Part shown: positions 512 to 53,100 of the stretch, piece after piece | Layout of the letters: every line of letters starts with the position of its first letter | Numbering within the stretch: position 1 is the stretch's first letter | Origin: a virus | Lineage: Duplodnaviria; Caudoviricetes | Strand: one strand, 5' to 3' | IMG/VR virus record: IMGVR_UViG_3300035208_002098 | Location: 96,001-160,000 of that record | Length of the DNA: 64,000 nt | Position numbers and translations under genes: made by a program | The notes under the pieces: generated by a model | Seen by the model: the letters and a program-made list of their open reading frames with translations, nothing else | Databases searched by the model: none | What the model was told of the DNA's origin: nothing

Positions 512-671
512 AATTATTTTACATCTATAAATTCAATAGATGTTATTTCAGAATTGTTTTGAATAGATTCAAAACTCTCATGTAATGTTTTATTTTTACA
601 CGATTCTAATATTTCACTTAACCAATGAAATGCTGATTTGTCTACTATTATTTTCATATTATGTTTTTTAG

Positions 672-743
672 TGCAGTAATTCGGACTTGAACCGAAAACC
701 CTCTCATTGGAAGTGAGACGCTCTTCATTGGAGCTATTACTGC
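672..743 (-). tRNA. tRNA-Gly(TCC)
   Basis: TCTCA-CTTCCAA-TGAGA anticodon arm. Confidence 0.9.
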
Positions 744-799
744 GTTATTTATTCTAAATCCTATGACATATATTCAATATCATGTTATTATTAATAATT

Positions 800-1063
800 A
801 AATAGATGACCGTAGCCAAGGTTCTGTTTTAATCTAACATTTATCTATATATCATATGATATATCCGGTTTTTCATTCCGGTGCCACTACCTGTCTATCA
901 TCGCAATCTGAGGACCCTTGCTAAGACTAATTTGTGTTGCATCCCATGTTGCAGTGGTATAACGTATAAATTAATATACTTCCACTTCTCAGAGAGATGC
1001 CTTGAACTTCCTCTTCACCACATTTAGTATTATGTGATAAAGCGTTAGAATGCCTGTCTATTT
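800..1063 (-). ncRNA. rnpB: RNase P RNA (compact, ~260 nt)
   Basis: GAGGAAGTTCAAGGC near the 5' end and AACAGAACCTTGGCTA near the 3' end form P4 with compensatory changes; AGATAAATG motif; terminal P1 AAATAGA/TCTATTT. Confidence 0.88.
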
Positions 1064-1064
1064 A

Positions 1065-1552
1065 TTATTTATTATTTTTTAATTGTTCTTTAATTTTATT
1101 ATCCCATAAATTAGTATCACGTAATTTAGTTAATCGTTTACAAAATTCTGATTCAGTTAATACTGTTTCACTTTGTTTATTTTTACCTATTGAATGTGTG
1201 AATACAGCATCATTAGTTGATAACAAATCTTTCTTAAAATTTTCATTAGTAAATAAAGCTTCGTATGCTCTATTTAATAATTCTTGGTATTCTTTAGATT
1301 TTCTCTGGAATGCTTCACCTTTCCACCATAATGTTTGTCCTGTTTTCCAAGCTTTATTACGACCACTACCTCGTTTCTTAGCACCAAACCCAACCAATTT
1401 ACAAACCTCAGCTTGAATAACTCATTCTCGAATTTAAAGGATTGTAATAACCCTTCCATTGATGCACATTCAACACCATCAAATATAAATTGTCTAGCCG
1501 TAAAATTACTTAGTCTACCAGCAACACCTTTATTATTTCCACCTATATCCAT
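1065..1552 (-). pseudogene. NADAR-family (T4 gp30.3-like) gene split by a 1-nt frameshift near 1415-1420
   Basis: ORF 1274-1552 (LSNF...SMEGLLQSFKF) continues in the other frame as IQAEVCKLVGFGAKKRG...TLWWKG...HSIG. Confidence 0.7.
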
Positions 1553-4253: not shown

Positions 4254-4392
4254 GAACAGGTTTGTCTTTTTGCGTTCTATTGCTCTACCAACTGAGCTAT
4301 ACCCCCAATATTAATATTTGTGGGGGCAATGGGATTCGAACCACATGACCCATAGATTTACCTAGCTTTTTATTTGCTGAATCAAACCTTTA
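4254..4392 (-). ncRNA. YrlA-like Y RNA (circularly permuted tRNA module)
   Basis: Order is T-arm, acceptor stem closed by a loop (TGCCCCCA..TGGGGGTA), then D-arm; ends pair AGGTTTG/CAAACCT; TTCAGCAA motif. Confidence 0.75.
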
Positions 4393-4547: not shown

Positions 4548-4562
4548 ATGTTTATTTTTTTG

Positions 4563-4647
4563 CAGACCCCGTAAGACTCGAACTTACAAACCAATTAAAG
4601 GCATTAGATTCAAAATCTAACGTGTTTACCAATTCCACCAGAGGTCT
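4563..4647 (-). tRNA. tRNA with Gln anticodon (TTG) on a Leu-like long-V-arm body
   Basis: D-arm GGTGGAATTGGTAAACAC, TTAGA-TTTTGAA-TCTAA, G73. Confidence 0.8.
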
Positions 4648-13062: not shown

Positions 13063-13189
13063 TGGTGATAATAGGATTTGAACCTATGCCATTATAAAGT
13101 TAATAGAAATCTCAATTAACCATTCAATTTCATCTTTATAACCTAACCTAACTATCGTTAGTGCTCTCACCGGACTGAGCTATACCATC
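13063..13189 (-). ncRNA. tRNA-scaffold RNA with ~50-nt variable-arm domain
   Basis: Normal D and T arms, no 7-nt anticodon loop, TTATAAAG/CTTTATAA stem. Confidence 0.55.
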
Positions 13190-13912: not shown

Positions 13913-14010
13913 AAATTTAACAATCTCTTACTTAAAGACAATCCACGAATTCCTAAACTCGCTTCTAAGCCCCTACTACTTCTTAAATTGTTTAATATTA
14001 AAAAATTAAT

Positions 14011-14136
14011 AACAATATTGATTTTTTTACGTGCTCTACCAACTGAGCTATATTATCAATTACTTGATAATAGGTGGGTTCGAACCACCGACCACGAGCT
14101 TAACAGGCTGATTTTAAATTGCTGAAACAATATTTT
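14011..14136 (-). ncRNA. YrlA-like Y RNA with Asn anticodon-loop mimic
   Basis: AATATTG-TTTCAGCAA..AGC-CTGTTAA-GCT, T-arm, loop-closed acceptor TATTATCAA/TTGATAATA, D-arm, CAATATT-GT. Confidence 0.75.
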
Positions 14137-52168: not shown

Positions 52169-52178
52169 ATTTTTAAGA

Positions 52179-52264
52179 GGGAAGGGTGGGAGTCGAACCC
52201 ACGATGGAACTTACGTTCACCAGATTAACAGTCTGGACTTTTCGACCACTAAAGCAACCGACCC
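52179..52264 (-). tRNA. tRNA-Asn(GTT), long variable arm
   Basis: CCAGA-CTGTTAA-TCTGG, V-arm GAAC-GTAA-GTTC. Confidence 0.78.
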
Positions 52265-53010: not shown

Positions 53011-53015
53011 ATTTG

Positions 53016-53100
53016 TCGTCTGGGTGAGATTTGAACTCACGTTGAGAATTAATCTCACAGCTTATCAGGCTGTTTTCTGCCACCACTCGAATACCAGACA
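53016..53100 (-). tRNA. tRNA-Ile(GAT), long variable arm
   Basis: ACAGC-CTGATAA-GCTGT, V-arm GAGA..TCTC. Confidence 0.82.

Follow-up and report, generated by a model that had tools for sequence, protein, structure and literature searches.

An RNA of 264 nt encoded on the minus strand of a large-phage contig (1063 to 800) appears to be the product of an intact miniature RNase P RNA gene of bacterial type A descent, which likely cuts the 5' leaders of phage pre-tRNAs. We assign this reading, which is drawn from sequence comparison, a probability of roughly 0.7. The element is embedded in a tRNA array. Its family has at least 50 copies on large-phage contigs of up to 735 kb, and the members combine the catalytic half of the bacterial RNA with the loss of the specificity domain. 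RNase P RNA is viewed as a housekeeping ribozyme of cells and organelles, and our literature searches turned up no account of one encoded by a phage. A compact phage RNase P RNA within a tRNA array was what the preliminary description of this DNA had proposed, and covariation, reciprocal covariance-model homology and genomic context all bear this out.

Source Record and Locus

The window, a stretch of 64,000 nucleotides, comes from an IMG/VR virus record of 248 kb (IMGVR_UViG_3300035208_002098, positions 96,001 to 160,000), which is about 70% complete and has a G+C content of 28%. The distant DNA relatives of this record are solely 'uncultured phage' genomes of 595–735 kb. The record holds one copy of the element, and the limits given in Table 1, which the preliminary description had already proposed, are the outer ends of helix P1. 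The 5' end of the RNA lies 2 nt past the stop codon of a split gene of the T4 gp30.3 family (PF08010; window 1065-1552, minus strand). This gene consists of two overlapping frames, of which 1274-1552 covers profile positions 3-50 and 1065-1397 covers positions 46-138. The split might stem from a frameshift, from faulty sequencing or from programmed shifting. Promoter and terminator scans gave results at chance level and were uninformative.

Table 1. Parts of the RNase P-type RNA gene in the window and two companion genes (window coordinates; motifs are given as read on the RNA strand).
Feature	Position	Strand	Remarks
Whole RNase P-type RNA gene	800..1063	-	P1 5' strand to P1 3' strand; family alignment
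P1 5' strand, AAAUAGA + GGC	1052..1063	-	2-nt internal loop; pairs with 800-810
P1 3' strand, GUC + UCUAUUU	800..810	-	
P2 5' strand, UCUAAC	1044..1049	-	Pairs with 833-838; P3 then opens with an invariant G-C
P2 3' strand, GUUAGA	833..838	-	
P3 hairpin	1013..1042	-	11 bp, 8-nt loop; RNAfold -12.0 kcal/mol; family covariation
J3/4 + P4 5' strand, AGGAAGUUCAAGG	1000..1012	-	E. coli A62-G74; bulged U69 kept
P4 5' strand, AGUUCAAGG	1000-1008	-	Reverse complement
P4 3' strand, CCUUGGCU	814-821	-	Reverse complement
J2/4 UUAAAACAGAA + P4 3' strand CCUUGGCU	814..832	-	J2/4 = E. coli A347-A352
P5 5' strand, CAUC	996..999	-	Pairs with 940-943
P6 pseudoknot 5' strand, UCUGAG	988..993	-	Pairs with CUCAGA (907-912) in the P17 loop
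Vestigial specificity-domain arm, GUGG-AAG-hairpin-CGUUAUA-CCAC	954..985	-	RNAfold; stem covariation
J5/15 (CAA), P15, P16, P17, L15 loop AGGUA	885..939	-	
Two hairpins at the P18 position, CCGG..CCGG + AUAUAUC..GAUAUAU	847..881	-	RNAfold
AGAUAAAU block, J18/2	839..846	-	E. coli A328-U335; A-G and A-U invariant in the family
tRNA-Gly(UCC)	671..743	-	56 nt downstream of the element; nearest likely substrate
CCA-adding-type nucleotidyltransferase, 389 aa	55221..56390	-	PF01743, 123.8 bits, E 1e-36

Correspondence with Bacterial Type A RNase P RNA

For comparison of the conserved blocks, the E. coli rnpB sequence was aligned to RF00010 as reference. The phage RNAs share with rnpB, in the same order, the C-G-C junction of P2/P3, GAGGAAAGUCC, GCAA-P15-AAAUAG, CGGGUa-P15', CuAGAugAAUG-P2' and ACAGAAcccGGCUUA. 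The CR-IV block AGNNNNAU, which precedes the 3' strand of P2 (J18/2), is present in the window as AGAUAAAU and is aligned to E. coli positions 328-335 by the phage covariance model R1 described below. The CR-I/CR-V flanks of P4 are likewise present (GAGGAA.. and ACAGAA..GGCU.A, window 1000-1012 with 814-832), and within the J3/4-P4 5' block GAGGAAGUUC is invariant in the family. Both strands of P4 had been recognized in the preliminary description, and the minus-strand pair AGUUCAAGG/CCUUGGCU indeed forms a helix with the geometry of E. coli A66-G74/C353-U360, that is 3 bp, a bulged U and 5 bp. In the window copy the pairs are A-U, G-C and U.G, followed after the bulge by C-G, A-U, A-U, G-C and G-C. 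Relative to E. coli, A67-U359 is replaced by G-C and G68-C358 by U.G, which leaves the geometry unaltered, and G61-A66, the bulged U69 and C70 are retained throughout the family.

Several E. coli positions are invariant in the family without having been imposed by the search pattern, namely A248, A249, G292, G293, U294, A328, G329, A334 and U335. The GCAA and GGU motifs are invariant in all 32 sequences compared, and GGU lies outside the search pattern. In the enzyme, A248 and A249 are the J5/15 adenosines by the cleavage site, G292 G293 U294 form the loop to which the 3'-CCA of the tRNA base-pairs, and A328, G329, A334 and U335 belong to the J18/2 core. In the window copy, A248/A249 correspond to the J5/15 sequence CAA and G292 G293 U294 to the L15 loop AGGUA, and all columns that are invariant in the family are kept.

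Searches in both directions show homology to the RNase P RNA of bacterial type A. R1, a covariance model of the 3' half that was built from phage copies alone, scored 73.9 bits on window positions 797-947. In an 830-kb background it recovered E. coli rnpB over the entire 3' half, with the blocks in register (25.8 bits, E 1e-4), and handled P18 as an insertion. In the opposite direction, a permissive cmscan aligned positions 1-367 of RF00010 to the element of Stenotrophomonas phage DLP6 (54.7 bits) and to those of loci L123 (46.2 bits) and L111 (45.3 bits), with E-values of about 1e-11 to 1e-14, all of them below the gathering cut-off of 100 bits. The archaeal model RF00373 aligned the copies of L097 and L100, far below its gathering score, and the type T model RF02357 had no match in all-Rfam scans of the window and six relatives.

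The preliminary description had named the Rfam models as a check and a missing covariance-model hit as evidence against it. The outcome is divided: when the whole window was searched, its AT-rich copy matched none of the Rfam RNase P models at gathering or at E<=1, and its relatives do align over the full length of the model below threshold. It is only because the GC-richer relatives match RF00010 or RF00373 in this way and the phage model matches rnpB that we identify the window copy as a member of the same homologous family. The length of the searched sequence also matters, as cmscan drops RNase P matches with large internal deletions when the query is cut down to some hundred bases. Since such a slice lost the 54.7-bit match, negative results from short slices are a search artefact.

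A Family of Compact Copies in Large Phages

The starting lead came from two huge phages, in which blastn matched the 3' block weakly. In both, the two conserved blocks were the same and the inner letters differed, yet were complementary. IMG/VR was scanned with the pattern GAGGAAGTTC - 130 to 190 nt - AACAGRANNNNGGCTACG, in which four positions per P4 strand were left free, and 41 contigs were found. Together with the two huge-phage copies and the window this gave 44 elements with 34 distinct sequences. The free P4 positions were complementary in 42 of the 44, via 13 helix sequences. This complementarity is well beyond chance, and it confirms the compensatory changes in P4 that had been claimed beforehand.

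A relaxed pattern added seven elements, the largest of their contigs being 494 kb. Four other viral contigs contain compact copies whose P4 has the canonical letters of bacteria (GAGGAAAGUCC ... ACAGAAnnnGGCUUA), and the phage-derived model recovered three of these (L137, L139 and L140; L138 is unconfirmed). Because of these canonical copies, the phage class must be wider than the GUUC variant. The compact pattern had 19 matches in viral contigs versus only two among 185,579 species genomes, both in small MAG contigs; the compact form is thus nearly restricted to viral contigs. A first scan with 15-mers had returned 87 loci, which all, except the window's own (L088), were without the 3' P4 block. 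These were taken as chance matches and reused as negative background. Locus L074 has a weak R1 match at 1171-1324 (17.3 bits).

One carrier is an isolated phage, DLP6 (KU682439.2; locus label L133). Its element, at about 105774-106022, occupies an unannotated 258-bp gap of the tRNA array, directly upstream of tRNA-Arg, and neither RNase P nor a ribozyme is mentioned in the DLP6 genome paper. Since DLP6 and its host are in culture, direct functional testing is feasible. DLP6 also carries a permuted tmRNA (L133 25-246, KU682439.2 ~102838-103059; RF04321, 136.8 bits) for which the record has no RNA feature.

Selection on the Fold

The secondary structure, first derived by reading the sequences, was tested on a MAFFT alignment of 32 distinct sequences, using the 39 pairs of P1-P5, P15 and P16. 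Standard pairs made up 92.1% of the cells, compared to 63.7% after shuffling and 28-40% when the partners were slid. Changes on both sides of a pair were seen at 32 pairs (345 cells), and the observed measures were reached by none of 500 shuffles. This is decisive evidence that the fold of the family is under selection.

The signal extends over all helices tested. P2, which crosses P4 in a pseudoknot, is 99% paired and has both-sided changes at all six pairs. P3 and P4 are 99% paired as well, the former with both-sided changes and the latter with four covarying pairs. P5 is 89% paired with both-sided changes at all five pairs, and P15 (94%) and P16 (94.5%) both show covariation. In P1 all eight pairs covary, although only 77% are formed because of bulges. 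The P6 pseudoknot connects the stretch after P5 with the loop of P17. A subclass of 12 members, DLP6 among them, was used for a column test, in which P6 was 93.8% paired and seven of eight pairs had changed on both sides; a per-sequence shuffle test, which is a weak one, gave 6.8 versus 5.2 bp.

The hairpin in the arm that replaces the specificity domain was misaligned by MAFFT. It was therefore excluded from the formal count, and its stem was checked sequence by sequence. The consensus of this arm is GUGG - GAG/AAG - hairpin - CGUUAAnA - CCAC, and the stem covaries in 24 of 32 members, versus 28% in a cross-member control. For the window copy itself, RNAfold reproduced the local hairpins. Its P15 has only 3 bp with an A.A mismatch. 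The two hairpins at the P18 position form a variable insert in the family alignments and are missing from compact members.

Loss of the Specificity Domain

The catalytic half of the RNA is complete. It comprises P1-P6, P15-P17, the bulged U of P4, the J5/15 A-A, the L15 GGU, J18/2 and J2/4. P6 is lengthened to 6-9 bp and P18 is optional in the family. The specificity domain P7-P14, with its T-loop-reading module, has been lost almost entirely. In the window copy a 32-nt arm stands at the site of bacterial P7-P14, which agrees with the reduction of this domain noted in the preliminary description. In DLP6 about 140 RF00010 positions (P7-P14) are replaced by about 49 unaligned nucleotides, and the limits of the deletion are the same throughout the family. 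Homology of the short arm to P10-P12 could not be established. AGCAAGG and UGCAACA had been considered as motifs of the specificity domain, but this was wrong, as AGCAAGG belongs to P17/L17.

The suggestion that the reduction suits the processing of non-canonical tRNAs found no support. The specificity domain is reduced across the family, including DLP6 and many contigs with tRNAs of ordinary length. Because the relatives mostly have such ordinary tRNAs, the reduction is a trait of the family and not an adaptation to the long-arm tRNAs of the window.

The tRNA Array and Companion Genes

Within the window ARAGORN found 43 tRNA genes, and over the record as a whole the tRNA model matched 54 times, always on the minus strand. 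Across 33 family loci, all 361 tRNA genes counted are on the strand of the element. tRNAs are present at 30 of the 33 loci; the nearest lies within 20 nt at 12 loci and more than 1 kb away at several others. Only two of the 43 tRNA genes of the window encode the CCA end, and the window contains a gene for a CCA-adding-type nucleotidyltransferase (Table 1). A search of the record (248 kb, about 70% complete) for RnpA (PF00825) gave nothing at E<=1; the same search found RnpA in 10 of 10 bacterial control genomes (10 of 14 overall).

The window further contains a parallel set of long-arm tRNAs of 82-90 nt with an extra arm of 4-5 bp (class II shape). They are located, among others, at 281-366, 1954-2039, 2705-2791, 4562-4647, 52177-52264 and 53015-53100 (all minus strand). 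Their anticodons (Thr-UGU, Lys-UUU, Glu-UUC, Gln-UUG, Asn-GUU and Ile-GAU; also Trp, Arg, Val and Cys) are those usual for short-arm tRNAs, and most of them adjoin a tRNA of normal length with the same anticodon. This set is peculiar to the window. Two tRNA-model matches of 127 and 133 nt (window 13063-13189 and G000:C1:52918-53050, both minus strand) probably contain an intervening sequence. Weak matches to YrlA (Y RNA-like) were seen in the tRNA region at 14003-14117 (-) (30.4 bits, E 0.014) and 4276-4354 (-) (24.9 bits).

Unusual tRNAs also occur elsewhere in the family. A tRNA-Ile(UAU) of 91-95 nt recurs in many family phages (L133 1925-2019, L094 1748-1842, L108 5623-5715, L110 8274-8365, L113 7425-7519, L124 266-357 and L128 638-729), and several have a short tRNA-Leu of 75-78 nt that lacks the usual long arm. 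tRNAs with a CUA anticodon (amber suppressors, named 'Pyl' by ARAGORN) are found at L101 5497-5648 and L110 4321-4395, which hints at stop-codon recoding in these two family members.

Proposed Function and Alternatives

We propose that the element RNA is probably transcribed along with the tRNA array, which lies on its strand, and is then freed from the precursor. Its most likely action is cleavage of the 5' leaders of pre-tRNAs encoded by the phage itself. As no RnpA gene occurs in the phage record, the protein partner would probably be the RnpA of the host. The RNA and the CCA-adding enzyme of the phage may jointly form part of a phage-owned tRNA-maturation line, from which the phage could benefit. 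The C-domain of E. coli RNase P RNA alone is active, with an efficiency that is lowered when the S-domain is missing; it needs a P6-like pairing and can do without P18 (PMC5839562). The long P6 and optional P18 of the family fit these dependencies, which makes activity without an S-domain plausible. Some features argue against this proposal. The S-domain that reads the tRNA elbow is absent, P1 has an internal loop, P15 has 3 bp with a mismatch, no Rfam RNase P model matches the window copy, rnpA is missing from the incomplete record, and the GGU that binds CCA is retained even though CCA is not encoded in the tRNA genes. In addition, a viral RNase P-like RNA from orthopoxviruses is inactive in vitro (PMC3001073).

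One alternative is a non-catalytic mimic, in which the C-domain-like fold would bind host RnpA or pre-tRNAs and titrate or redirect the host enzyme. The lost S-domain, the kept protein-contact regions and the absence of rnpA from the phage record would agree with such a role, and the orthopoxvirus RNA is an example that is expressed but inactive (PMC3001073). Still, we consider a mimic unlikely, as the positions for chemistry and docking are invariant (P4 bulged U, J5/15 A-A, L15 GGU, ACAGAA), the element is strictly co-oriented with tRNA genes and the isolated E. coli C-domain is catalytic (PMC5839562). It is also rather improbable that the RNA is mainly a cis module, which would cut the adjoining tRNAs of a polycistronic transcript and free itself without being a general trans enzyme. 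An RNA that has lost its S-domain should bind less well in trans (PMC5839562), and the 12 of 33 loci with a tRNA within 20 nt would suit action in cis. However, the nearest tRNA of the window is 54-56 nt off and that of several loci more than 1 kb, a single copy accompanies 54 tRNAs, and the L15 GGU for intermolecular CCA pairing is conserved.

A decaying, functionless fragment of a captured host rnpB could be expected to have a large internal deletion and, as in the window copy, no Rfam match. Yet more than 50 copies in diverse phages keep every helix by compensatory changes, the deletion has the same limits in all of them and the window copy retains all invariant columns. For practical purposes, covariation refutes this explanation, and we regard it as extremely improbable. 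We favor an intact RNase P RNA gene that acts on phage pre-tRNAs. A more far-reaching form of this proposal would be an autonomous viral RNase P that cuts the tRNAs on either side and so excises itself, supplants or circumvents the RNase P of the host, works with the phage CCA enzyme and, as it does not read the elbow, could handle the long-arm tRNAs. This is conceivable, though doubtful.

Relation to Known RNase P RNAs

The closest known system is bacterial type A (E. coli M1 RNA/rnpB; RF00010). The phage RNA shares with it P1, P2, the G-C junction, P3, P4 with the bulged U, P5, the P6 pseudoknot, the J5/15 GCAA, P15-P17, the L15 GGU, AGAUnAAUG, ACAGAA and GGCU-A, all in the same order. It differs in being phage-encoded, in its length of 264 nt versus 377, in having a short arm instead of P7-P14, and in its optional P18 and P6 of 6-9 bp. 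Whereas the Rfam cut-off is 100 bits, the relatives reach 45-55 bits and the window copy has no score.

Eco CP RPR, an engineered C-domain ribozyme of E. coli, resembles the phage RNA as a catalytic domain without S-domain, and its P18 is dispensable once P8 is removed (PMC5839562). It is, however, a laboratory deletion of lower efficiency, whereas the phage RNA is a natural, selected gene with a short conserved arm. The archaeal type T RNA of Thermoproteaceae (RF02357) is a natural diminutive form without most of its S-domain and was missed by older Rfam models (PMC3579882), but it belongs to an archaeal lineage with an archaeal protein set, while the phage RNAs have the bacterial P15-P17 with GGU and P6. 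Diverged or reduced RNase P RNAs of CPR bacteria, found only with lowered cmsearch thresholds, are without P12-P14, P16-P18 or GGU/UGG (PMC8172020). These are cellular and essential and mostly keep the S-domain, in contrast to the viral RNA, in which the S-domain is nearly gone and GGU is kept. The RNase P-like RNA of camelpox virus and other orthopoxviruses (recounted in PMC3001073) is likewise virus-encoded and was proposed to resemble RNase P. That candidate has a loose structural similarity and is inactive in vitro, whereas the phage family has position-by-position homology of the core and lies among tRNA genes.

A survey of huge phages listed tRNAs, tmRNAs and CCA-adding enzymes but not RNase P. 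Because the relatives score about half the Rfam cut-off and the window copy scores nothing, the element is probably unannotated in many phage genomes. A conserved and widespread phage version would be the first viral RNase P RNA with true homology of the catalytic core, and the ribozyme would join the translation-related genes known from large phages. The family would also represent a natural experiment on the minimal RNA, in which a bacterial catalytic domain was long kept without its specificity domain, with dependencies that are those of the deletion studies, i.e., a strong P6 and a dispensable P18.
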